A program made the position numbers and the translations under genes. A stretch of DNA of 20,487 nucleotides. Source: Amoebidium appalachense. Its lineage: Eukaryota; Protista; Ichthyosporea. The notes beneath the pieces are model-generated. The model was not told the DNA's origin. It was given only the letters and a program-made list of their open reading frames with translations, and ran no database searches. Within the stretch, counting starts at the first letter, position 1; every line of letters begins with the position of its first letter. The DNA is taken from the NCBI GenBank assembly GCA_963693365.1, contig CAVNZM010000065.1, positions 1 to 20,487 of the forward strand, written 5' to 3'. Positions 477 to 20,487 of this stretch are shown here, piece after piece.

Positions 477-2846
477 CTACATGTCCACGAACCTGTTCAC
501 CAAGAACTGCTGCCGGCTCCCTGCTGCAGGTGGCAGGGGGATGCAGTGGAAAGTGCCCAGTATGGATTCCACATCAATAACATCGTATCTTTGTTTCCTC
601 CTGCTCCCCGTCCCTGTCAATTCGTACTGTAACTTCATACAGCCTGTGGGTGGATCTTCCCCCATTGCAATATAGTAGCGGACAAAGGCAAGGTTGTGCT
701 GAACGGGAGCGGATGACCCTTCGTGCAAGGTCAGGCACGAGAAAAGGAGCAGAGTTTCTGCGTAAAAATCCTCCCCATGCTCCCCCTGGATGACGATGTT
801 GTCGTACCGGTCGCGTCGCCCGTAAAACCCGTCACACGCCACCACCCGATGCCACACAGCCTCAGCGGGCAATCCCAGTCGGATATAGCAGCTGTTGTAC
901 AGCCATATGCAGCCGTGCACGGGCACCGGAAGAACACGGCGTGGTGTGATACGCGCCTGCTCGGAGGATATCCCAGCCAGGTGCAACTGCAGCTGTAGTG
1001 GCAGGTACTTTAGGGCGCTGCCTCTTTCAGTGTCCAGCAGGGTGCTGGGCACGAAGTTCCCTGGCTGGGCAAAGAAGGCATCCAGCTTGGCAAGGCCTAG
1101 GCCTTTCTTCCTCTGCATGCCTAGAATATAAAGGAATGCAACATCGTTACCAGTGGTGTGAATTTCCATGATTGGGGGGGGGGGGGGGGGGGGGGGGGTG
1201 GTTATCGGGTGGACGAAGGGGTTGGGGAGGAGGCAGGGGTGGGGAGGGGGTGGGGGTGGGGGGGGGGGGTTAAAAAAAAAAGCACACACAAACCCTTCAA
1301 CTTGAAAGTTTGGTCACTCCCTAAAATTACGGTTTGGACCCCCCCCCCCAGTGGGGGGGTTCCTTCATGCTTTACCACGTGCTTCCCTACACCCATGCCC
1401 TGCTTTTCCTGAAAAGAAACCCTGCTACTTGGCTTTTCCCTGGGATTTAGGGGAATTTGCATGCAGGCTCAATGGAAAGTTCGCTGATTATGATTTTTGG
1501 CCTGAAATTCAGGCCGTTCGGACCCCCCTGACCCGGCATGGTGCCATGCCGGCATGAAACTTTGCAGGCACGTTCTATGCTCCTCAAGGGTGTGTACACC
1601 AAAAAAACTGGGTGGAAAACCGTACGGTGGAAGGGATTTGGCACGTGTTGTGCCCCCATCTAATAGTAGCCCCCCCCCCCCCCCCCCCCCCGGCCTGGCC
1701 CCACCCACACCCCTAGGAACATCCATATATGGTATAAGGAATTGGGGGGGGGGTTCCTTCATACTTTACCACGTGCTTCCCTACACCCATGCCCTGCTTT
1801 TCCTGAAAAGAAACCCTGCTACTTGGCTTTTCCCTGGGATTTAGGGGAATTTGCATGCAGGCTCAATGCAAAGTTCGCTGATTATGATTTTTGGCCTGAA
1901 ATTCAGGCCGTTCGGACCCCCTGACCCGGCATGGTGCCATGCCGGCATGAAACTTTGCAGGCACGTTCTATGCTCCTTAAGGGTATGTACACCAAAAAAA
2001 AACTGGGTGACAAACCGTATTGTGGAAGCGATGTGGCACATGTTGTGCTCCCATCTAATAGTAGCCCCCCCCCCCCCCCCCCCCCCCGCCTGGCCCCCCC
2101 CCACACCCCTAGGAACATCCATATATGGTATAAGGAATTGGGGGGGGGGTTCCTTCATACTTTACCACGTGCTTCCCTACACCCATGCCCTGCTTTTCCT
2201 GAAAAGAAACCCTGCTACTTGGCTTTTCCCTGGGATTTAGGGGAATTTGCATGCAGGCTCAATGCAAAGTTCGCTGATTTAATGATTTTTGGCTTGAAAT
2301 TCAGGCCGTTCGGATCCCCCCTGCCCCGGCATGGTGTGATGCCGGCACGAAACTTTGCAGGCACGTTCTATGCTCCTCAAGGGTGTGTACACCAAAAAAA
2401 CTGGGTGGAAAACCGTACGGTGGAAGGGATTTGGCACGTGTTGTGCCCCCATCTAATAGTAGCCCCCCCCGCCTGGCCCCACCCACAACATCCAGATATG
2501 GTATAAGGAATTTGGGGGGGGGGGGGGGGGGGGGGGTTGTGCTGACTGTACCTGACATGAGCACTGTCTCATCGTCGTCTGCCCGCTCTAGATCAGCATC
2601 TTCAGCTACCTCTGGTAAGACCTCGTCTGGTCGGTCCTCCACCTCCGCCAATTCCTCGACTGTCAGGTCTGGGGGTACATCCTGAACGATTGGGTGAAAT
2701 CCCATGGCCATTTTCTTCTCCTCATCCAAACCCTGCAGCAAAGCCCTACGCAGGTCCATTGCATCCCACCGGCGAACCTTGGTGGCCACCTGCAAAAAAA
2801 ACAGACGGTGTGAGGCAAGGCAGGTTACGGTATTCCATCCCCCCCT

Positions 2847-2880
<34 letters not shown>

Positions 2881-4399
2881 CCCCCCCCCCCCTGTTGCAG
2901 GCCAAACCCTAACGCTAACCCTAACCCTAACCCTAACCCCCCCCCCCCGCCCTCCGCCCCTGATGAAAACTATGAGATATACCCTCAACCCCAACTGACC
3001 TGAATGATGAAGGTTGAGTTCTTGTTGGTCATGCGATAGGGGATTTTGCAGTAGTATTTGTGGGCCCGTTCCCAGCTCTCTGCCGTCTCCAATGGACCAA
3101 ACAGACGGAAATCGTCTGCATAATGGTCGCCGGCATGAAGCTTCGCTGTGGCGAGGTCGTTTTTGGAGGAGTCCTTGAAGCACTCGTACGCGTCCCGGGC
3201 AAACCTGGAAAAGTGTAGTGAGCACTTTCACATGTTTTAGGTTTTCAGGCACGTCATACACAATCAACGAGAAACTAAAGATATCTGGAGGATATGAAAA
3301 CGATATGCACAACATATCAGAATGGTGTTTTAATATGCCATTAATGATGGGCATGTTCATGGCCATATATCACCAGGATGTAACATATCAACGATACGGA
3401 AAAACCAATCCATCACATACCCTCTGGATATCAAATGGACACACTATGCCTGAGGAAGACCAACCTTCGGTATTGTTGTGTCATTTTCTCCAGTGCATCT
3501 TCCGTGAACGTCTCCTTCGTTACACTCATGTACCATTCATTCCATCCCACAAACACCCTCTCAGCCTTGGCATTGGCTGCTGCATCTGGGAGTAGGCCAC
3601 GGACGACGAATGGCATGACCTGCACATGTGTTCACAACAATGTATTAGGCCCTTTCTATACAATATCCTTTGATACTGCATGTGCATACTGTGTGTGTGT
3701 GTGTGGGAGTGTGTCACGTTAATTGTGAGAACGGCACTGTTTTGGTGTGTGTTTGTTGTGTGTGTGTGAGGAATGGAAGGGGGCCCGGGCGGGTGGGGGG
3801 GGGGGGGGGGGGGGGTCTACATTTACCTTCATTAGGTCTCTGTACTCGTTAGCACGGAGGAATGTGAGATCAGACACAGTGCCGGTGAAGTGTCTGAGCC
3901 CGTGGAATCTGGGCATGTCATTGAACCTGGCATCGAACTCCCGAATGGTTTCCTTTGCATATTGGTCAGCAGTGGCTCCCGGCCCTCCGTAAACCTCCTC
4001 GCAGACGTGTTTAACGTAATGTTTGTATTCGATCATCATTTGCTTAAATACACCACTGTCAGCTTGGTGCATGCGCTCAATGGGGACGCCCCACAACCAC
4101 CGGAAGCCTGGTAACTTTGGGCCAGCATTGATTGTGAAATTTTGGTCCTGCAGTGACGCCATTTTCAGCAACTCGGTTGCTACAGCCGACGGCCCGTTGG
4201 CGCGTAGTTCGGCTACCTCGACGTATATCCCCTCAATTTGCTCCTCGCTCTTCAAAGGTTGCGGTTTCCAAACCTCACACAGGCCGTTGCATGACTGCCA
4301 GCATTTATGACATGGGCTGGCAGTTGCGACACCACCTCTGCATCGTTATTGTGGTGGGGAAACATTCAATTAGAAGGAGTGTGTTGTTGGTGGGTCCTC

Positions 4400-4434
<35 letters not shown>

Positions 4435-6613
4435 ACAACGTGCACACCCACACACACACACACCCTATCATCAGTGCTTACCTGGTACATGTCACCTTGC
4501 GCCCCTCCGGCCAGTCTGTCACGTAGTATGATACACGTGGGTACATAAGACGCCACTTTCCATCGCTTCCACAATAAAACCATCGCCCCGTCGCGTTCAT
4601 TTCACGCAGCGGCTCGCCAATAACACGATCCAGCACCGCGTGAAACAACTGCAGTCGCGCCTTAGACTTAACAGCCTCCGATATCTTTGACCCAGCAGAG
4701 AACTCCAGCTCAGGGATGTATGCAACCGGAAGCCTGCAAATCACTGGTTACCACACTGTATACTTGCACGCCCTACTACTAGCCTACGGTACTCTACATA
4801 CTAAAATAGTGCCGCCATCTTTCAACCCTATCTAAATGATGGGTATAAGTTCCCATAAGGAGCCCATAAACACCAGAAAAGGATATAATCATGATAACAT
4901 TTAGATACTTCGGCTAAGTTCAACAGCAACTAGTAGCACTGACCTGCACCAGTCGCCCGACCTGAACTCCTTCTTGATGTTGCCCGCGGAAATATAGACA
5001 GGATATGCCTTCTTCCCGGCAAATGATGTTAACTGCGTCTGGTCAGAGTACACAATAACCGACCATAGAGTACCCCCCACTGGTATCGTCAGCTCCTCCC
5101 TTACTGCCCAGTCGCCATCCATATTGTCTGTGTACAACCTACGGCCGAGACCATCAACTGGGAACTCTGTTTTATAGGTGATGGAACCCTCGTGCCGAAG
5201 CGTGGGGTGTAGTAGCACGCGCTGAATGCAGTCACCAACATCCCTGTACATGACGTCCACCTTCTTGATGCCAGCGCGGTGCACATCCACCTCCATGCGG
5301 GAGAAGGCCTGTGGGAATGTCATGATATTCAATTCAAGGTGCATTGTATGTGTTGGGAGTGTGGAGTGTGCCGCTCGGTTTCAGCCAGCAATGGATGCAC
5401 TGTGTTGTGTGCAGGGGGCGTAATAGCATGTCCGTTCAAGCGAAACCACGGCCGAGATCTAAGTATGCATGCAAGTCCATCTCTAATTAGCCAATCGTAT
5501 ACCTTGTCGTCGATCGGATCTAACATTGAAATGTAGATAAACCAATGGCGCATACTCCCCGGGCTCACGATCTAAATCCAGATCTGTGTCTTCCAATCTT
5601 CATGTACACTCACCAGACTTGGGATGCTGTCCATCTTGTCGTGCAGGTGTTTTATCTTCTTGGGGAACGTGTCCTGGCCATCTTCACCCTGTGCATGCTC
5701 CCTCATTATCCCCAAAAGGCGGTCTGCTGCAGCCATGGACGTCTTGGTCTCGTGGAAGTATTCCGCTATGTCTGCCTGCGCCCGGCCCGGTGAAGTCGTC
5801 TTAGTTAGATTATCTATAATATACGCGTCATATAAAATACCTATCCCAAAGATGTCCAAAACATACCTAAAAGTGAACCCAAGAGCCCGCACAGTGTCAC
5901 CCAACAGTTGAGCCGCGTCATGTATTGTAGGTTATAGCAGTTTTAGCGGCTACCCTGCCGTGGTGCATCCCTACCTCTGCTTTGTTGTCAAACGGGTAGT
6001 GGGGGTCCGCACGTAAACGGTCAATGAAGTCACTGACGTCTTGGATGTATGCCTTCTGTCCCTCCTTCAGGTTGGCATTCACTGTCCCAATAAATGAATC
6101 ATGGCCGTCTAGCACTTGCAGCTGCTCCTGTTGCTTTTTCAATAACAAAGCTTTCAAAGCACGATACTCATCCCCGTCCCTAAGGAATTTAAGATGGTGT
6201 GTGTGTCCAGGCGGCACTGGCATGCCTTCCCCATCGTCCTCAGCCACGTCCTCCCACTCCGCCTGCTGTGCGTCGACGTCAGCATCCCCCGCATCCTCCT
6301 CAGCTGCAGGCTGTGGGTTATCCGAGTCCGGATCCGCGTCGTCTTCATCCATACTAACATCATCATCATGACCACTCTGCTCTGGCTGCATATACTTGCG
6401 TGCTCTGTGGCGTGTGAGGATGCGGTCATTGTTACGTTCACGCTCGATGTCTTCTAACGACGTGTTGTGTACATGTATGCGGTGGCTTACCATACCCGCC
6501 CTGTTGACAAAGAGCTCATTGCATGCATATGAAGGGCACGGTATCAGTCTACTTAGTGTTGTTCTTTGAAAACTTTTCCTGTTACGAGTCATTTTTGGTA
6601 GGTCGCAGCGCAT
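477..6613 (-). CDS. Plavaka-type (CACTA/EnSpm-related) DDE transposase, 9 exons, ~1056 aa, with N-terminal C2H2 zinc finger
   Basis: Manual splice model: complement(join(477..1120,2552..2789,3000..3204,3465..3619,3827..4337,4482..4733,4944..5308,5614..5775,5975..6613)). All 8 introns are GT-AG with consistent phases (0,0,2,2,0,2,0,1), giving 3171 nt with no stop. Motifs: CPSYACNELF..MVSHRIHVH (C2H2), VIVYSDQTQLTSFAGKKAYPVYISAGNI, CGSDGKWRLMYPRVSYYVTDWPE, CHKC, MHQADSGVFK, FDARFNDMPRFHGLRHF, KLHAGDHYADDFRLFG..ESWERAHKYYCKIPYRMTNK, C-terminal RYDNIVI..LAFVRYY..DVIDVESI..FHCIP..FLVNRFVD. These match my recollection of the Plavaka family consensus. Confidence 0.9.
1360..2513. repeat. Three tandem ~395 bp near-identical units inside transposase intron 8
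   Basis: Units start with TTCCTTCAT at 1360, 1754 and 2150 (periods 394 and 396), end with GGTATAAGGAATT, and are separated by poly-G. Internal palindromes include GGCCTGAA-A-TTCAGGCC and CCGGCATGG-TG-CCATGCCGG. Confidence 0.95.
2907..2936 (+). repeat. Interstitial telomere-like (CCCTAA)5 with one variant unit, in transposase intron 7
   Basis: ccctaa cgctaa ccctaa ccctaa ccctaa read directly. Confidence 0.8.
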
Positions 6614-7806: not shown

Positions 7807-10658
7807 ATGTCAAAGAGGCAGAAAGCCGCGGTGGCTAACACTAAGAAAGCCACAGAAACACCGGGCCGGCGCGGACTCCCACCCCCTGTGGCGGGGGGTG
7901 AGGAAGAGGGGGTTCATGACCTCTCCGCGCTTACGTCCAGGAACAAAAAGGGTTCCGGCAAGGCTCCTGCCGCGACCGCCTCTCAGGCATCCCTCTCTGC
8001 TGGCGTGCTGCTCACACGCATCACCAAGGAAAACGCCCCTCTTGCCCTCGGCATCCTCAACGGCGGCAAGAAAAAGATTCAAGGTGTGTGGCGGTGGTCT
8101 ATGCATGCACGCTCTGGTTTTCCGTGTTCCACCTTTTATCTCTCTGTACCTTTTTGCACATAGTCACTTTCTCTCTGCTGTTCTGGGTGTCACATCGCTA
8201 AAGACAATCGTTAGGTGTAGGCCGAGCTCTCTCATGGATGAACGCAGGGCTGTGCAAGCACTTAGTGCTTTGCACGACGCGGAGGCCCATGGTGAAGGGT
8301 GTTGTTTAATAAGTGGTTTCGCCTCCCCAATTCCTTTCACCGAGGCAATTGATTTGTTTTCTGCGACTGCAATCAAGAAACAGGCAACCAGGCAAACAGT
8401 TACAAGTGTGTCAGAGCAATGGTGTGAGATCACTAGGAAACCAGCTCGCGTGAACCTTTCAGAGTGCGATGCAGTGCCGGTTGATAGCGAGGGTCTGTCA
8501 GACATGAGCAGCGATGTTGTGGCACGCTTTTACGAGGAAAACCTTTTTGGAAAGGGAGGGGTGTATGCCGCTGACGTGGAGGTGGACGCTCGAAACATAA
8601 CCGACAACCGTTTTTTTGACGTCTCCTCCATTGCTGATTTCACTCCACTTGGATGGAAACACTATGGGGAGACGATGCCGGGTCTAAACGTGGCCATGTT
8701 GTATGCGCAGTTAACGGTTTTGGGCCTGACCTTTTTTGGGGCACACATTGAAGATGCTGCACTTGCATCCGCCAGCCTGCTCTTGTGGGGGCTGAAGATT
8801 TGGTTTATTCATCCTCCAGCACAGTACAAGCAACTTCTCGCGCTTGCAAAGAAGGGAATACCTGGATCGTGTGCCAATCCTTTACAACACAAGAACTATC
8901 TTCCTCGCTCCCCCCTCTTTCTGGCATCCATAGGGTTGGCCCCAGTTGTTGTTGTTCAACGTGCTGGTGATTTGGTTCAGACCACGCCAGGTGCTCTCCA
9001 TTATGGTTTTCAGTTGGGTCCCAACGTTGCGCTAGCGGTGAACACGGCCACGTTTCGATGGATTGACCAGCTTGCTTCATATCCTGCGTGTGACTGTCGC
9101 GCTCATTTTATTCCCAACGTGGATAAGATGGTGGCTGCCTTTCAATCTGTTGGTCGGCTTAGAACCCCAATTGCTTCCGGTTCATCCTCCCTCCCCCCCC
9201 CCCCCCCCCCCCCCCAAACACACACACACACACACACACAACTCATTGCCATGCAGTTTTTTTTGGCAGTTATGTTGACGGCACAACACGCCTTTGCACG
9301 TTTAGTTGCCTGTTTTATGGGTTAATGATATAATGTTGATATCTTTATTATATGTCTATTATGCAAAGAAGGTATGGTACTTTACATATGAACTTTTTTG
9401 GCCCCTGGTCTAACTCAAATATCATTTCCCCCCCCCCCCTGCAGTGGTTTCTGAAACGTGTGAGCCTGAGGATAGCGAGAGCGGCGAAGACGCAAATGAT
9501 TCGAGGGACGTTGCCGATGCCAGACCACCCAGGGGCGACGGCATGGCTATCATGCCCACTGACCCGCTCGAGGTTTCCTACCTGGTCCTCATCCTCAAAA
9601 CTCGGTACCCCAGGGCAACCCACCGGTCCCATCTCGCGATGTTGTCGCAGGTTAGCCGCCGGGAAATGCGCGCGGCCCTGACCGCTGAACATGGTATGCC
9701 CCCGTTTCCCATGACCGACAAGGACCGCGCTGAGGAGGCGGCAAGATCAAATCCCTCCCCGAAGAAGAACGGCGTCACCATGCTGACCCCCAAGGAGGGA
9801 TATGATCATATCGTAGGTGCACCCATCACACCACTTTAGAAGTGAAACATTTTTGCCCTCCTCCGTCTTTCCAAAACAAAAATCCAAAGCTCTGCTTTGC
9901 TGCTTTGCCGTGTTAGTTAACATCTCCTTGATTGATCAACGTGGCTGATCCGTCGTGTGGCTTCATGCATTCCCGTGTTCTGGATGTGTGTTTTGGTTTT
10001 GTCATCCGTCGAAATTTAAGAAGTCCACCCCAAATACTCCCCCTGCCCCTCAGTCTTCATTACATGCACATTCTTCTTGTGGTGCTTTGGTTTTGTGATT
10101 TTTCGTCGATGAAACATATGAAGCATCCCATCCTATCCAAAGGATGTCTTGCCGACATCTAGTTAACTTGAACATATTATTTATATGATATGTACATGTT
10201 CCACGTGAATGATATCTGTTAGACACTTGTTTCACTGTTCAATGTCAGAGATATATTCAGATGCAGACTTTGAACAAGTATTGCCCCTAACACGTGTTTT
10301 TTTCCTGACAGTCGGCCGTGGTCAAATCCACTTCCAAGACTGGCATTCTCTATCAGCGGTTGCTGCTGGAGTCCCCCTTCATCAACACGGCCAACGACGG
10401 GGATTTGGCCTTTGCTGTCCTCGAGGTCTACAAGATGCTCGACCGCAAGAACTACAACCGCATCTGCCAGGATGCCAAGGATGATTGGTGTCTGGCGCTG
10501 AACAACGCTCAGCGCAAGACTGACGAGAAGGCCCAGGTCACTGCCATCCGCACAGGCCTCACCACAGTCAAATCCATTCTGGTCAGCAGTATTCGCAGCT
10601 TTTTGAAGACCGGCTACATTGTGCCCGGCACCAATCAAGATGCAAGTGCTCCCCTCCC

Positions 10659-10689
<31 letters not shown>

Positions 10690-10823
10690 AAAAAATAATA
10701 AAAAATAAAAAGTAAAAGAACACAGACATTGGGCCCAACTAGCAATTCTTGCCTGAATTAATTGTTTAGAAAATATGCATGCACTAGAGTATTGTCACGG
10801 CTTCCCTACATATCCCCCCCCCC

Positions 10824-10854
<31 letters not shown>

Positions 10855-12183
10855 ACACACCAACCCCCTCCAAACAAGCGTCTGTGAAGGTGTGTCATTT
10901 AGACTCTTGTATATCATTGGGTTGCCCGCACATATACTTTGGTTTGATTTGGATTCTCCATGGCATCTACTCCCTCCTCTCCCCCTGTCGGAAATAACTC
11001 CTTGGACCCCCCCCCCCCCCCCCCCAAAAAAAAAAAAAAAAAAAAAAAACCAAACCAAGCCAAACCAAACTACACACCCACACCCAACCCCACCCTCCAT
11101 TCACATAGCAAATACCTGAGTTTCCCTGTTCCGATGCCTGCTAACTTTATCTTGTATTTATTTCCTACAGCTGTTTCATTGGGCGCCCGCCGGCGAGGTG
11201 CGTGTCGAGAAGTGGCCCTCACTTCTGAAGGAGGTCATGGTGGAGGGCAAGCCATGTGGCCAGAGGTTCAGCGCCGACCCGGAGAGCCTCAACCCCTACG
11301 GCGCTCAATCCTTCACCCGCTTGTTCAGCACCATATCCATGAAGGCGATCAAGGACGTCTGCGGGAAGATGACGGCGTTGGTATAACCTTCCCCCCCCCC
11401 CCCCCCCCCCCCCCTCTTCCCCCCCGCCCCGCCCCCGCGCCCAACCCCAAACTTTGCTATCTGTGCCCTTTGATAAGAAGACGTCAGAGATGAACATATC
11501 ATGATATGGCACCCAATTAGACCATTTTAATGTCTCTTTGTTGAAACGGTTATAGCAATAACGTCCTTGTAATGTTCCAATCCCATATAATGAGGTCATA
11601 GACCTCTTTGATTGGAATATTTCATGTTGTGGACCATTTTAATATGTTATTGTGGAAACGGATATAGGAATAGCGACTTTGTGATATACAAACGATATAA
11701 TATGGATATCCTCTTAATTATCGTGGTATAATATGGATATCCTCTTAAATATATGATATTTTAGAGAATATCCATATTATATCGTTTGTATATCACAAAG
11801 ACATTATTCCTATATCCGGTTATTAATAGAGGGAATTTCTGCATTTTGATTCAGCCTAATCTTACTTGTTGTTCGGCAGGAGATTGCAAAGCAGAAGCCG
11901 GAGTTTTTCTCCTTGGTCGTCAACATCATCGAGGAGTCGCTGAAGTGCACCAGCATGCATCAATCTGACAATGCCAAGTGGTCCAACTTTTCTTACCGTG
12001 CCAAGGAGCCAACATACGACGGTGGAGCAAGTCCCGACAATATCAAGCTGGTGTGTTGCAGCTTTTATCCCACTACTTCCCATCCCCCCCCCTCTCCCCA
12101 CCATAGCAACACGTCATCTCATCTATTATACCTATTTTTCAAAGATGATTGTTGTAGATAAGCAGGAGATCCCCGGTCCCCCC

Positions 12184-12214
<31 letters not shown>

Positions 12215-12418
12215 CCTTCCCCCTCTACACAAAGCAGACATGTGACGTGCTATTGGTGTAGACAAGAACCCCCCCCCCCCCCCCCCCCCTCAAACACACA
12301 CACAAAGGTTGCATCCCTCTGGTTTGCATTTTTTGCATCCATGGTCTTGTGATGGTACGTCATGCTGTGATCTCTGAATTCACTTTATGTTTATGTGTTG
12401 TGGTTAAATTGTCGTTGA

Positions 12419-12453
<35 letters not shown>

Positions 12454-12865
12454 ATAAACCCTATACCAAATATACCCACTAACAATAAAAATGCTTCCCA
12501 AATAGTACATCAAGGTCTACGAGCAGTTCCAGAAGCGGAGAGATGCCGCTGACGCCAAGGCCGCTGCCGCCCGCGCCGTCGACGAATCCGACGCCAGCGC
12601 CGCCCCCAAGACCATTCCCGCCGAGCATGACGGCGCCATGAGCGTGGATGACGTTGACGAGCAGTTGAACGCGAGCGATAACAGTGAAGGCGAGAGCAAG
12701 AAGGGAGGCCAAGACAGCAGCGAGCATGAGAACAGCGATCATGAGGGCAGCCGCGAGGGCGATGAGGGCGAGGGCGAGGGCGAGGGCGAGGACGAGAGAG
12801 AGGGCCGCAAGCGCAAGAACAGCTTGGAGGGCGACGAAGACCTCGACAAGAAGAGGGCAAAATAG
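7807..12865 (+). CDS. Multi-exon gene (~900 aa if fully spliced): KDM4-like JmjN/JmjC demethylase plus unknown helical C-terminal region and acidic/basic tail
   Basis: Predicted exons 7807..~8083, 8164..9152, 9445..9812, 10312..10641, 11171..11380, 11880..12050, 12506..12865. Phases are consistent from exon 2 onward (1,0,0,0,0), and intron 4 needs a GC donor (GAT|GCAAGT). The exon1/exon2 junction is unresolved because of a phase mismatch. AATAAA at 13105. Confidence 0.72.
8164..9152 (+). CDS. JmjN+JmjC catalytic exon, KDM4/JMJD2-like Fe(II)/2-oxoglutarate histone lysine demethylase
   Basis: JmjN-like IVRCRPS..AEAHGEGCCLI; VYAADV; PGLNVAMLY; FGAHIED (HxE at 8744-8752); LKIW (2-OG Lys); CANPLQHK and CDC (the KDM4 Cys-His-Cys-Cys Zn site); QRAGDLVQTTPGALHYGFQLGPNVALAVNTATFRWID (distal His at 8999-9001). 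The order is colinear with KDM4 FAWHTED..PKSW..CEAFLRHK..[36 protein letters not shown]..CxC. Confidence 0.9.
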
Positions 12866-13429: not shown

Positions 13430-14468
13430 AAACGACATCAAACTGTGATCGGAAACGACGTCTGGATGATATCAAAATGGCTCAATCATATATATCAAGA
13501 CATGACATAATGATATGAAAAGGATAATATAACTATATTGCGAAAATCATTCTTAATAAATCTTAATTATACCTTAAATTTATCGTTTTGATATATGTTC
13601 TGTATGTCAAAAAGATGTGACAGAGTTATCTTAACGATATGCTACTAATATCATAAGGAATGGTTAGCTGATAAACTACTATATGTTTTAAAGATATGTA
13701 ACAGATACTAGAAAGATGTCGTGTATAGGACATACAGCCAGAACTTCTCATATCTTTAAAGGCTCCTAAAACTATCAAAACGATATTATTACGAAATTTC
13801 TTTTGACCCATCCTAGTTATCTTTATGTTATGAGGCTTATATCGTTATGACATTTAACGTATGATCTTTAGATAATGTTTTCGGCATCCTATACCTATCC
13901 GTTGTATATGAAAAGGACATCTGTAAGAGTATCTTATAGATGTATTACCATATACGAATCCTCCTATAATGACCTCGAAATGATATCATATAGATATATA
14001 TGTATCTTATGATCGATTATCATATATATCGTAAGGATATGTGATAGCTACCATAAGGATATGGTGAAGGGCTCCTAATCCGCTCTTAGAGATATCTTTA
14101 TTATGTCTAAAACGCTTCTGAACATCAGACTAAAAACATTTTATGATATCAAATAGACTATCATAATGGTATCATACGGATATAACGAGGTTGTTGAATA
14201 CATGGAACACAGGATAGAACAACGATGGGTTCAGGGTGCTCCGTATGAGCCCATTATGAGATCATTTAGATATCAAGCAAAAGATACCAAAATGATATCC
14301 AGAAATTCCATGATAGCAAAACGATGCTGTTATGTTATCTAAAAGACAAGAGGGGGATAAAGAGTGGCAAAAAGATGGGTTTATGGGTTTATGATATCTT
14401 TAATGGGGTTTTAATGGGTTTCGGATGCCGGATGAAGTTTGCTGATGACCGTAGTTTTTCCACGACCA

Positions 14469-14537
14469 CTATGGTGCCCGGATCCACCATTTAGTAGCCT
14501 AAGGGGTGTCGATAAAGTGTCGGTGGAAGCTTCAAAA

Positions 14538-14594
<57 letters not shown>

Positions 14595-15461
14595 AAGCCT
14601 TGTGTGTGTGTGTGTGTGGAAGCCTTGTGTGTGTGTGTGTGTGTGTGTGTGGAAGCCTTGTGTGTGTGTGTGGGGGGGGGGGGGGGCTCCTACCGCTTCT
14701 GTGCCTGGTACATCACGGGCGTTTGCGATTTTGGCCTGATCGAGACGGTCGCGTATCTCATCGATGTCCCTGAAGCCGAGAAGCGCACAGATGCTACCAG
14801 CGTCGAGGTAGGAGAGCTGCTCTTTGCTAGCTGCAAAAGGGAGCGTGCAGCTGATGAACGGTACAAGGCACAACGGGCTAAGTCTGTCGAGCGCCTCGCC
14901 CAACATCTGTGAAACAGGCAGGGGTGCAAGATGGCGCCTCCAATCACCAGCAGTGGCGAGGGCTTTGATTTCACCAGGTGGCTTTTTGGTCATTGAGATG
15001 TTAGCGCGCGAGCGCTTCCATTGTCTCGTATCGGAATCCTGGTTCTCGGCAGACCTGAGCCGGCCAAACCATGTTGTTGCTGGCGTGGTTGTGGTGGGTG
15101 GCAGCGTGGGGGCGTGAGAGGAGACCGCTTGCAGATGCAGACGTGCGGGAACAGGACGCGCCGGAGAGGGGGGGATTGTCTCGCCGCAGACCATGTCGAA
15201 GTCGAAGACGTGGTGCTGGCCGTGGCTCTTAGCCGTCGTCGGGGTGGGCGCATGGAGCATGGAGCCGTCACCTAGTTGGTTGTCAAAAGCAGCAAAATCG
15301 TCGGACGTCAGCGGAATGAAGTCGGTACTCTGTATGATGTCCAGGTCGGGTTGTGGGGTGGGTGGAAACGTGAAGGTGCTGAATACGGCCGGCTGGGAGA
15401 CAGGCGCAGCGCCAGGAGCGCCGATGTCCATCGCGGTGTGCAGTGTCTGTGACATGTACAT
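14469..15461 (-). CDS. Hypothetical protein ~265 aa with a Pro/Thr-rich disordered N-terminus and weak BRO-N/MSV199-like C-terminal motif
   Basis: Open frame 15461..14694 ends at the donor GCG|GTAGGA. A poly-C/(CA)n intron follows, then acceptor CCCCTTAG| and a short last exon 14498..14469 (ATKWWIRAP*). Motif [30 protein letters not shown] and several CCAAT/ATTGG boxes lie upstream. Confidence 0.5.
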
Positions 15462-15675: not shown

Positions 15676-16310
15676 TTTGGTGATCTCAGTATTGGGAGTG
15701 AGTGCAAAAGGACTGAAGCCATTTCGGAGCCCTTGACTGCCTAAATGTTTACAAATATACCATGAACTCTTTGGCGCAGCAATCCATTTTCTCTCTCGCG
15801 ATTTTGCTTGAATTAAATCGTGTTTTACGCATCTACGCATCTATCCCCCCACCAAATAACGGCTTCCAAGAGAACATTTGGAAATCCAGGTTAGGCCAAT
15901 CAAATTCTACCGAAAACCGATTGGATGAAGTCTCAGCCCCAAGAGAACAATTTGCATATTGATGAACCCATGATGGAAAGTCTCACGCTTATGCACCCAC
16001 CATGAAAAATACAATTCAAGATTTTTTGCATTTATTGTAATTACAATTGAGAGCTTATGTTGCACAGGTTATTCCCACGTATAGCGCAGAACTACATGAT
16101 GCAGATGGCCCATCATCCCCAGCGCCAACCAACTCTATTTAAGTAAGCGGATGACGTCAAAATGACGTCAACGCATATGATGACATATCTACTCTGATAA
16201 CAAAGAACACCTGCCGGCAGGCGCGCTGGCGCCGCGCTCTAGCGCTGCACAGCCTGACACAATTCCGAGCAAGACACACACACACACAACTCAATTCTAA
16301 TTTATAATAT

Positions 16311-16480
<170 letters not shown>

Positions 16481-16585: not shown

Positions 16586-17603
16586 TCACTCACTATCACT
16601 GTCCGCAATCACCACAACATCAACGGGGCCCTCGGGCTTCTGCAGGCGGGCGACCTTGCGCTTCCGCCCCAGCCGCCCGCGCTGCACATACACGTCCAGC
16701 TGGGTCTGCCCCTTGAGCTGCTCGCCGCGCTCCACCAGCGGCTCGTTGAGGCTGACGGTGCGCCCGAGCTCCAGCGGCTCGATGTCGGGGAACTTGTCCT
16801 GGATGGCCTCCAGCCACGACGCCAGCTCGACGTGCACCTCGTACTCGGCAGCGCCCGTGTCCGCGTTGTTGATGGTCGACTGGCGCAGCACCGGCGCCTT
16901 GCAGTACTCGACGTACCAGCGCGTGTAGTTGTAGACAAAGGTGTACAGCTGCTGCGTGGTCATGTCGGTCGAGTACTTGGGCTCCTCGCCGGTCCACAGC
17001 CGGATGCGCTCCTTCATGGCCTTCTGCAGCCCGGTGGTGGCGATGATGTTGGAAATCTCCCCCGACTGGAACACAAAGCACACGCCCGTGGTGGCCATGA
17101 TCATGCCCGTGTACGTGCTGGCGCAGCGCACGCCTTCGCCGTACAGCGTGTCCACGCACACATACGCGAACGCGCGCGTCAGGCGCTTGAACTTATGGTT
17201 GTCCGTGTACGTGCCGCCGGTTGTGAGAGGCATGCGGGTCGGGAGGGTGAGTGGTTCGAGCTTCACGCGGGCGAGAGCGGCAGCGAGGGTGGCGAGTGCC
17301 TCGGCCTGGGCGGCCTCCGCGGCCTCCTTGGCCAACTCGGCAGCCGTCTTGTCGCCCATGGCCTGGTCGCGCTCGGCGGCAGCAGCGGCCGCGTTTGCTT
17401 CGGCCGCAGCAAGGGTGGCGCGCAGGGCAGAAACGGCCTCGTCCTTGCGGTTGGCAGCCAGACGGGCAAAGGCCTCGGCAACATCAAAGGCCCACAGACG
17501 CACAGTGTGGCCCAACAGAGTGTTGGTAGAAGATGACGCCATGCGAAACCCTTTGGGCGTCATGTGGTGGTCCATTGGGGGCTGAACCACCGGACTTGGG
17601 AGT
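16586..17603 (-). CDS. Exon 2 of an MSV199/AntA-like DNA-binding protein with Ala-rich coiled coil, unknown domain and PIP-box/NLS/SIM tail
   Basis: 334-codon GC3-rich ORF preceded by poly-C and the acceptor CCAACACAG| (exon starts 17603). The N-terminal PPMDHHMTPKGFRMASSSTNTLLGHTVRLWAFDVAE resembles the second half of AntA/MSV199-type domains (GRPxxDYxLT...TxxGxxVRxYF). Joining to exon 1 requires a 1-nt correction near 17586. Confidence 0.7.
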
Positions 17604-17651
17604 CTGTGTTGGAGGGGGGGGGGGGGGGGGGGGTTGAGTCATAGAGCTACC

Positions 17652-17760
17652 GTGTCAGCCCGTGTGGCTGTGTCGTCATTATGACGCGTGTCAGCCCTTG
17701 GAGCTGTGACGTCATTATGATACGTCATTGTGAAGTCACCGTTTTTTTTTCTATACAAAG
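17652..17760 (+). promoter_or_regulatory. Putative promoter of the nested nuclease: 36 bp direct repeat with CRE-like TGACGTCA/CGTCA, and TATACAAAG
   Basis: GTGTCAGCCC..GCTGTG(T/A)CGTCATTATGA starts at 17652 and 17688. TATACAAAG at 17752-17760 precedes ATG 17764/17779. Confidence 0.5.
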
Positions 17761-17763
17761 AGT

Positions 17764-18282
17764 ATGGTGAGTATTCAAATGAGCGCGGATACCATAGCGC
17801 GCAAGTATGGGCTCTCAAGAAATAGAATGACTGAGAATATAATACGGACCATAAGACGACTGGGCTGGGCAGAGAATGTAGATTACAGAGTTACAAGAGT
17901 ACGCACAGGCAGCAGGGGCATGCCAGGCAAATCGTTTTTTCTAACTGATCGTGCTTACAGCAAACTGGCTAAAAGGCTCGAACAGACACTCGGAAAGGAG
18001 CAGTCAGAGAGGAAGGTATGTGCAAATCTACAGAAAAGGGAAGGGGGCGTGAAGAGAACAGTGCCTGCTGGAGAAATAGACTTATTGACAGACAGTGATG
18101 TGATCGAAGTGAAACATGTCCGCTCATGGAAACATGCTCTCGGACAGATCCTAGTCTATGGGAAGTACTACCCTGGTCATCGTAAACGCGTCCACTTGTT
18201 TGGTAAAGCACCACTACTCGTTTGTCATAGAGTCTCTCATGGAACACAATGTGGCTGTGACTGTAGAACCAGGATATTATGA
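17764..18282 (+). CDS. Intronless AntA/MSV199-like DNA-binding domain fused to a PD-(D/E)xK restriction-endonuclease-fold domain; C-terminus probably frameshifted
   Basis: N-terminal WAENVDYRV...GSRGMPGKSFFLT. Nuclease segment ERKV..L..REGG..VPAGEIDLLTDSDVIEVKHVRSWKHALGQILVYGKYYP...VHLFG has D, ExK and GQxxxY motifs. This type is familiar from large DNA viruses and cyanobacteria. The A-rich codon usage differs from the flanking exons. Confidence 0.8.
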   Translation: MVSIQMSADTIARKYGLSRNRMTENIIRTIRRLGWAENVDYRVTRVRTGSRGMPGKSFFLTDRAYSKLAKRLEQTLGKEQSERKVCANLQKREGGVKRTVPAGEIDLLTDSDVIEVKHVRSWKHALGQILVYGKYYPGHRKRVHLFGKAPLLVCHRVSHGTQCGCDCRTRIL

Positions 18283-18377
18283 TCCAATGCAGGTATCAAC
18301 TATGTTGACAACCTCGTCTAAAAACAAGCTCGACCTACTAGCAACGGTTGCACTTGCATCAGAGGGGATGTTCATAC

Positions 18378-18680
18378 CTTCATCTCAACAACACTGTAGC
18401 TTCCAGCCGGGACAAAACCAGGCGACCCATTGCGCCCCTTGAACATGGCTCTCACAAACTCGTTGTAGTTGCCGTACCCCAGCAGGCGGAACACGGCGCG
18501 CCCGGAGATGGTCTCGGTGGTGTCCAGCAGGAACGGGTCGAGGAAGCGCAGCACCTTGACCACCACGTCGTCGCCCACGGTGCCCAGCAGGCGCTCGAGC
18601 TCGGGGGAGATGGGAGGGAAGCCGGCCTCTTTGGCACCGGCAATGTTGAGGCGCTCGTAGATGGCATAGGTGGAAGCCAT
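18378..18680 (-). CDS. Exon 1 of the MSV199/AntA-like DNA-binding protein (continues in 16586..17603)
   Basis: ACCATGG start at 18680 with TATATAAA ~90 nt upstream; GC3-rich. ISGRAVFRLLGYGNYNEFVRAMFK..GFVPAGSY is the first half of the domain. The frame ends exactly at a consensus donor AAG|GTATGA. Confidence 0.65.
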
Positions 18681-18770
18681 GGTCGCTGGTGGAAGAGTTG
18701 GGGCTTTGGGTTTGGGGGTTGAGTGCTGTGTGTGTACCGTAAAGGTGCTGGCTGTCCAGCGCTTGCTGTG

Positions 18771-18999
18771 TTTATATAGGGAGGCGTCCGGCGCTTCATT
18801 GGTTGTACGCTTCATTGGTTGTAGGAGGAGAGGAATGGAATCCAGCATTCGATTGGAGAGGATTGCAAGAGAATACTGGTCCCAGATGATTGGGTCGATT
18901 TGTTCGGCTTGTTCGGCGCTACATGCACTTTCTACACATATGCTGCATGCCATTCTCCTCTCCAATCGAATGCTGCATTCCTTCTACACCCAATGAAGC
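18771..18999 (-). promoter_or_regulatory. Promoter with TATA, tandem CCAAT boxes and an inverted repeat
   Basis: TATATAAA on the minus strand at ~18771-18778. CGCTTCATTGGTTGTA x2 at 18792-18823. Perfect 20 bp inverted repeat 18843-18862 / 18956-18975. Confidence 0.6.
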
Positions 19000-19096
19000 A
19001 CCGCTTTACGGTGCTCACACACCTGTCACAACCCCAATGTAACTCCAAAGTGCCAACTTTTCCATTCTAATATATAATAGCGCTATCATCCGTATA

Positions 19097-20487
<1,391 letters not shown>

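Follow-up and report, generated by a model that had tools for sequence, protein, structure and literature searches.

Two open reading frames on the minus strand of this Amoebidium appalachense contig look like halves of one DNA-binding protein, and they are separated by 774 nt that hold a nuclease-like gene on the opposite strand. Is the interposed segment an intron, and could the gene inside it once have spread it? We analysed the whole stretch of 20,487 nt, referred to as the window, together with contigs from sequencing runs (numbered X2, X6 and so on). Homology and the contigs give good support to a single gene, apparently AntA-like, that is split by a spliceosomal-type intron with a nuclease gene nested antisense within it. 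The features on which the argument rests are these:

18681-19060 (-): host 5' leader and promoter-like region, with a TATA-like word and CCAAT repeats, plus an inverted degenerate duplicate
18378-18680 (-): host exon 1, 101 codons; N-terminal region and first half of an AntA/MSV199-like domain
18378-18455 (-): low-GC3 tract in the last part of exon 1; paralogues diverge here
17604-18377 (-): predicted phase-0 GT-AG intron, 774 nt, closed in all three minus-strand frames
18372-18377 (-): donor GTATGA
17604-17641 (-): acceptor region; branch-point-like TGACTCAAC, 20-C tract, CAG
17764-18282 (+): nested ORF, 172 aa; weakly AntA-like N-terminus (about residues 1-80) and NucS-like PD-(D/E)xK core (about 81-147)
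17651-17760 (+): promoter-like region of the nested gene; 36-bp tandem repeat, TGACGTCA and CGTCAT words, then an AT-rich stretch
about 18205-18215 (+): frameshift in the nested gene, with the family's last helix and strand in the next frame (displaced tail within 18205-18271)
16586-17603 (-): host exon 2; remaining AntA-like domain, Ala-rich coil and C-terminal domain of unknown function
17411-17603 (-): low-GC3 tract at the start of exon 2, near the loose ends of paralogues
17575/17576 (-): one extra base beside a G run, breaking the exon-2 frame in the window copy
16313-16480 (host minus strand): A tract of 168 nt, about 105 nt past the host stop codon

The host gene and its predicted intron

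A single protein, KAI9549629.1 (P0008, labelled a Daphnia sinensis hypothetical protein), matches both exons in order: exon 1 corresponds to its N-terminus (52% identity, E 3e-28) and exon 2 to its C-terminal part (50% identity, E 4e-66). We presume that the Daphnia label may stem from a co-sequenced epibiont. Because P0008 matches both ORFs in order and their registers on a domain profile meet at the junction, we regard them as one gene, as the preliminary description had proposed.

Its naming of the two halves as MSV199/AntA-like stood less firmly. With the curated models for AntA (PF08346) and MSV199 (PF10553), scanned against the separate halves, the likeness fell below every cut-off, and neither exon was named MSV199 or AntA by any Pfam, PHROG or NCBIfam model. 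The likeness does appear with a home-built profile made from 10 viral ORFs, each of which weakly matches AntA or MSV199 below the cut-off. The start of exon 2 aligned with profile columns 64-99 at a probability of 52.7% (E 1.4e-4), while exon-1 residues 61-72 aligned only weakly with columns 12-23 (1.1%, E 0.047). On gapless extension exon 1 ends, and exon 2 begins, at approximately column 52, with the GG of exon 2 falling on the GG of the profile. The label is thus a plausible one. Searches for host-gene loci found no match in viral or metagenome contigs, and exon 1 had no match in the ESM Atlas.

The middle of P0008 is unrelated as annotated, but its residues 220-269, read one frame over, are compatible with the start of exon 2; P0008 is therefore probably interrupted near the same place. 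This frame test gave a score of 61.3, against 38.8 +/- 4.7 for 1000 shuffles, the maximum of which was 62.8. With P0007 as the query, 7 of 1000 shuffles reached the score, while the shorter P0015 gave no signal, with 480 of 1000 shuffles being as good. Residues ~100-205 of P0008 also contain a 42-residue repeat. The same stretch has the words DVTS, CDVT, FHWS and FDWS, in which TGACGTCA and ATTGG motifs can be recognised by eye, much as in the promoter-like region within the intron of the window. The intron of this homologue may likewise hold a promoter.

Six proteins matched in the exon-1 search. Three of them (P0009, P0010 and P0013) cover the N-half only, their ORFs ending no more than about 15 residues from the donor position; two others do not fit, as P0012 ends earlier and P0011 looks spurious. 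The exon-2 homologues P0007, P0014 and P0015 are C-half matches that begin past the acceptor position. Since the ends and beginnings of these homologues fall around the splice positions, the host family appears to be commonly interrupted at this site.

The donor AAG/GTATGA (18377), the poly-C plus CAG acceptor (17604) and the length of 774 nt are present as first described. The 3' end of the segment consists of 20 C followed by TCCAACACAG, with 17604 as the last base; its pyrimidine tract (17 of 20) was the best among the nine AGs listed, and the branch point TGACTCAAC was called by eye. Given the base composition of the segment, the chance of both ends occurring together is approximately 5e-7, and none of 20000 shuffles had both, in a test that considers only these fixed ends. 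No Rfam match was found for the segment at E<=1, and its folding was unexceptional (z -0.25, with 10 of 20 shuffles folding equally well), so that neither approach points to a group I or II ribozyme core. Nor did the ends of the insert carry the terminal inverted repeats or target-site duplication of an introner or DNA transposon. Among the contigs listed from eight runs, which attest presence and not absence, no junction skipping the 774 nt was found; the cover in X23 and X24, guessed to be RNA runs, was confined to the G run. Altogether, we consider it very probable that the segment is removed by the spliceosome.

Exon 2 opens from the acceptor with TPKSGG, and as assembled it reaches a stop after 39 codons, so a one-base offset is needed. 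The preliminary description had recognised this offset and placed it near 17586; the extra base in fact lies about 10 nt away, at 17575/17576. It had also suggested that the indel be sought in reads. In each of X2, X6 and X20, the sole contig across the site is without one base at 17575 and carries substitutions at 17549 and 17573 (spans 17549-17575, 17457-17632 and 17504-17632, respectively), and no contig with the window version was listed. These runs represent three studies, one of which may be the window's own source. Because the spanning contigs lack the extra base, copies in the population keep the exon frame unbroken across precisely this junction, and the window's base is likely either a consensus error by the G run or a private change. 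With the base at this position, the GG motif runs directly into DHHMT, and the QPPM that had been expected to follow TPKSGG drops out. Another acceptor, at 17582, has a poorer tract (12 of 20) and keeps the frame only if the assembly is left uncorrected; as the contigs favour 17604, it was rejected.

The nested antisense nuclease gene

The antisense ORF has a codon usage different from that of its host, as had been noted, with a GC3 of 0.47 where the two host ORFs have 0.83-0.86. Of 34 candidate proteins, 6 match its residues 81-147, and an alignment-based search matched 37 of 122 viral stretches (loci L001-L037); when the nuclease sequence alone served as the query in the locus search, nothing was found. 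The catalytic core motifs are present, with D106, E115 and K117 invariant. In the viral relatives the same nuclease domain comes after KilA-N, Rha or AntA-like domains; the N-terminus of the nested ORF matched the AntA-like profile at a probability of only 6.9%.

A structure model built from seven sequences was confident only over residues ~80-150. Its best fold match among 48,161 chains was NucS (2vld; Z 7.3, a middling value; rmsd 2.7 over 70 aligned residues), and the other listed matches were mostly restriction-like nucleases, suggesting a NucS-like fold for the modelled core. Foldseek returned nothing at E<=0.001, the PDB held no sequence match, a single-sequence model of the N-terminus reached Z<=5.6, and leads in the ESM Atlas were under 0.9.

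The preliminary description took this gene for a complete PD-(D/E)xK nuclease. Its NucS-like core bears out the class; the gene is nevertheless not complete in the copy family seen, being frameshifted near its end. Homology ends at G147 (~18204), and the tail continues in the next frame at 18212-18271, where it scores 6.7 on a profile of family tails versus -19.4 in its own frame (shuffle maximum 6.6, 2000 shuffles; family members score 3.7-26.6). The comparison used 28 family tails, leaving out L028, a long fusion, and counting L034 as truncated; all but one of those shown end in a helix and a short strand, 41-69 residues past the LGQ motif. A 152-nt contig from X6 covers 18103-18254 with zero differences, and hence the frameshift is present in the genome. 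Because the tail is frameshifted, the nuclease of this copy family may be inactive.

A 28-nt GT-AG stretch at 18203-18230 was rejected as a mini-intron within the nuclease gene, since none of the 28 tails has a loop and helix nearly as short as its removal would make them. Beyond the tail, its frame (18155-18442, plus strand) runs on without a stop for about 57 codons, crossing the donor and reaching 65 nt into the antisense of exon 1. This open stretch overlaps most of the exon-1 low-GC3 tract and may be chance or a former C-terminal extension.

A promoter had also been placed within the intron, and there is indeed a 36-bp tandem repeat with TGACGTCA at 17651-17720, a resemblance in motifs only. 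A separate pair of TGACGTCA-like words lies near 16150, in a region (16140-16260) with no clear gene.

Among the loci of the viral relatives, 33 of 37 have no antisense ORFs on both sides, and the other four were not split genes on inspection. As none of the 37 shows an intron-like setting, this is not a known homing family.

Copies, flanks and methylation

The window looks eukaryotic, with a Plavaka transposase, a JmjC gene, homopolymer and (GT)n tracts, and several poly-C...AG ends; those resembling the acceptor are also found at 2900, 9444 and 12106 on the plus strand. A Pfam scan of 10 window ORFs matched only a Plavaka transposase piece (4901-5344, E 6.5e-22) and the JmjC gene (7898-9322, E 5e-12). 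The former belongs to a multi-exon gene at 477-6613 (-), apparently with a 396-bp tandem repeat inside it (2.8 copies, 1353-2470). The latter is intron-containing (7807-12864, +), with a large exon that looks low in GC3. In the portion of PMC11244446 available to us, endogenous giant-virus regions typically carry stand-alone JmjC genes. Elsewhere in the window we noted a non-coding, AT-rich stretch at 13500-14400 (31-35% GC) with many GATATC-like words, and an orphan ORF at 14532-15461 (-) with an upstream region rich in CCAAT words. The 168-nt A tract beyond the host gene could be a retroposition scar or an assembly-inflated homopolymer; a poly(A) sits oddly with an intron-containing gene. 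On the other side, 18711-19060 forms a large imperfect palindrome. Its right arm repeats the host promoter and leader in inverted, degenerate form without a gene behind them, as if derived from a head-to-head gene pair. It is followed at 19099-20487 by a satellite-like tandem array of a ~154 bp unit interleaved with (GT)n, each unit carrying the word AGGTAAGT on the minus strand.

Every DNA run holds several variants of each part, and the intron-bearing unit is therefore multi-copy. Many contigs track exon 1 as far as 18426, 18427 or 18436 and from there part from the window with differing in-frame peptides; two X14 contigs leave it closer to the donor, at 18381 and 18383, and other paralogue contigs rejoin exon 2 near 17397-17447. 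One X9 contig shares exon 1 and GTATG, after which unrelated sequence begins with a T, giving the donor GTATGT. Contig depth drops across ~17450-18450, although depth is no measure of copy number here and the G run may lower it. Within the intron, 18209 is where a second variant family (X2, X6 and X14) departs from the window, right at the break in the nuclease gene. The same genomes contain nuclease copies that have diverged, with 29 differences over 240 nt in X2 and 33 over 519 in X14, and by eye many of the listed differences lie at third codon positions.

The exon sequence beside the insert also differs in composition, with a GC3 of 64% (48 of 75 codons) compared with 92% (263 of 286 codons) in the distal exons (p 1.5e-8, an optimistic value, as the boundaries of ~80 nt before and ~190 nt after the insert were picked after viewing the profile). 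Such flanks would fit co-conversion from a foreign donor during homing, but they could equally reflect a linker that is hypervariable or diverged paralogues recombining with each other. By eye, the flanks of paralogues are also AT-rich at third positions.

In X20, 41 of 45 difference places were C>T or G>A. We read X20 as a converted library because its differences are almost only of these types. In seven of the eight X20 contigs listed, there are as many differences as C or G outside CpG on the better-fitting strand, the eighth having one more; the printed loose ends retain CG in TCG and CCG contexts. The exons and the insert thus appear fully CpG-methylated, as are the silenced giant repeats in the part of PMC11244446 available to us.

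Competing explanations and comparison with known systems

The preliminary description started from the premise that nucleases do not normally live in spliceosomal introns. That premise is outdated: spliceosomal homing introns, named shintrons, have been described in mirusviruses, where cleavage of host-gene copies without the intron is their predicted means of spread, and 15 of 334 carry PD-(D/E)XK nucleases, one of four classes (PMC12768974). We favour, with a probability of roughly 55%, a shintron-type spliceosomal intron in a multi-copy and likely methylation-silenced gene, spread at one time by the antisense nuclease, the tail of which is now frameshifted. The host gene would be transcribed on the minus strand, and the spliceosome would remove the intron and join the AntA-like DNA-binding gene. 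The nuclease gene would be driven by its own plus-strand promoter in the 3' part of the intron, as its motifs suggest; lying on the opposite strand, it would be expressed independently of splicing and would escape the fate of the excised lariat. An intact ancestral nuclease may have cleaved paralogues that lacked the intron, close to the junction; repair of the break from a copy with the intron would then have moved it together with some exon flank. For this last part, homing with flanking exon carried along, we put the odds at about even; the divergence of paralogues at and around the site and the shift in codon usage of the exon flanks lend it indirect support.

Enzymes of homing systems generally decay once their targets are filled. 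The recent multiplication of the family seen here is most likely due to a larger repeat that carried it along and not to its own homing, and the 774-nt unit looks like a shintron, probably decaying, in a Plavaka/JmjC repeat region. Counted against this reading are the frameshifted tail, the viral loci without any intron-like setting and the interruption of distant homologues, because of which the intron may predate the nuclease. The low GC3 of paralogue flanks, for which a hypervariable linker would suffice, the missing signal with P0015, the two exon-1 matches that do not fit and the sub-threshold AntA likeness also weigh against it. A bolder extension, which we hold only tentatively, is that homing spliceosomal introns extend beyond mirusviruses: a eukaryote's nuclear repeat family would carry a shintron that homes between paralogues, and different lineages of intron and nuclease would compete for a single site in an AntA-like gene, leaving conversion tracts and a diverged target site as their footprint. 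Some copies, such as the variant family that departs at 18209, would encode an intact enzyme.

The most serious competitor, although we think it unlikely, is that the intron is an old and genuine spliceosomal one into which a free-standing viral nuclease gene inserted by chance, as a passenger that never homed and is now decaying. It would account for homologues interrupted at about the same site, for the other sequence that follows the same donor in the X9 copy, and for a broken nuclease whose relatives are free-standing viral genes. It sits less well with a nested ORF and upstream region that occupy nearly the whole intron, or with low-GC3 tracts centred on the insertion site; the diverged nuclease copies, with their many third-position differences by eye, also suggest long retention.

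That the insert is not spliced at all strikes us as improbable. On this view, AntA-family genes recombined and brought in an inverted AntA-nuclease gene that destroyed this copy, and the resemblance of its ends to splice sites is chance. Both genes do seem AntA-like in part, the copy appears methylated and the assembly has an out-of-frame base; against this, the joint chance of the two ends is very small, the junction frame is intact in contigs from three studies, and the donor is kept in the X9 copy despite the unrelated sequence after it. Three independent neighbouring genes, a reading that draws on gene callers listing the N-half and C-half homologues as separate ORFs, are largely refuted and have only a slight chance of being right: P0008 contains both halves, the break falls inside one predicted domain, and the N-half ORF ends one codon into the donor.

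If the shintron-type reading is true, the range of shintrons widens to a chromosomal repeat family, whose variant copies, several sequenced samples and apparent silencing by methylation make splicing and homing testable, and a spliceosomal intron spreading by its own enzyme would be a route for intron gain. According to the Discussion of the paper that named shintrons (PMC12768974), eukaryotic genomes and other viruses are apparently without them, and cultures are needed for a homing test; shintrons are known there only from metagenomic virus genomes. In the literature on introns of this type, covering few subscription papers and preprints without their supplements, that paper alone was relevant and we found no case from a eukaryotic genome. 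In the portions available to us, the main text of 10.64898/2026.10.09.758095 describes no introns of this nuclease-carrying kind, and PMC12166617 reports that autonomous introners were not found in integrated viruses.

Several known systems share parts of this arrangement. Viral genes that join AntA, MSV199, KilA-N or Rha domains to a NucS-like nuclease, in nucleocytoviruses and others, have the same variable N-terminal DNA-binding domain and the same IDLLT / IEVK / WKHALGQ nuclease domain; SmDNAV (BCU09076) has this architecture too, in the available part of bioRxiv 10.64898/2026.08.29.747986. Unlike the window ORF, these genes are free-standing, none of the 37 loci lying inside an intron; in the window ORF the family's final helix and strand are out of frame. 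Antisense homing endonuclease genes within nuclear group I introns of myxomycetes resemble our case in orientation and nesting, whereas those introns are self-splicing rDNA ribozymes with His-Cys box enzymes for which cleavage has been demonstrated, as far as the accessible part of PMC9548176 describes them. The Plavaka giant repeats and endogenous giant-virus regions of Amoebidium share the Plavaka and intron-containing JmjC genes, the repeated genes and the keeping of CpG outside CGC/GCG contexts; the passages of PMC11244446 that were searched mention endonucleases zero times.

The closest likeness is to the shintrons of mirusviruses. The present intron lies among repeats of a genome that appears cellular and contains spliceosomal Plavaka and JmjC genes, in copies that appear methylated, and its host gene looks AntA-like, while mirusvirus hosts are mostly virion-module genes; its nuclease is 172 aa long and frameshifted, in contrast to 345-563 in the five PD-(D/E)XK rows of the portion of PMC12768974 supplementary file 2 available to us. 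In that portion four of the five rows name the nested gene, and all four place it antisense, as it is here; homing is inferred for mirusvirus shintrons as well. As for a fixed site in a given host gene, homologues and paralogues are interrupted or diverge at the position of our intron. At the level of sequence the two share a GT-AG intron with recognisable splice sites, no group I or II signature, and a nested gene of more than 100 aa from the nuclease classes that define shintrons (HNH, GIY-YIG, VSR or PD-(D/E)XK), here of the PD-(D/E)XK class.
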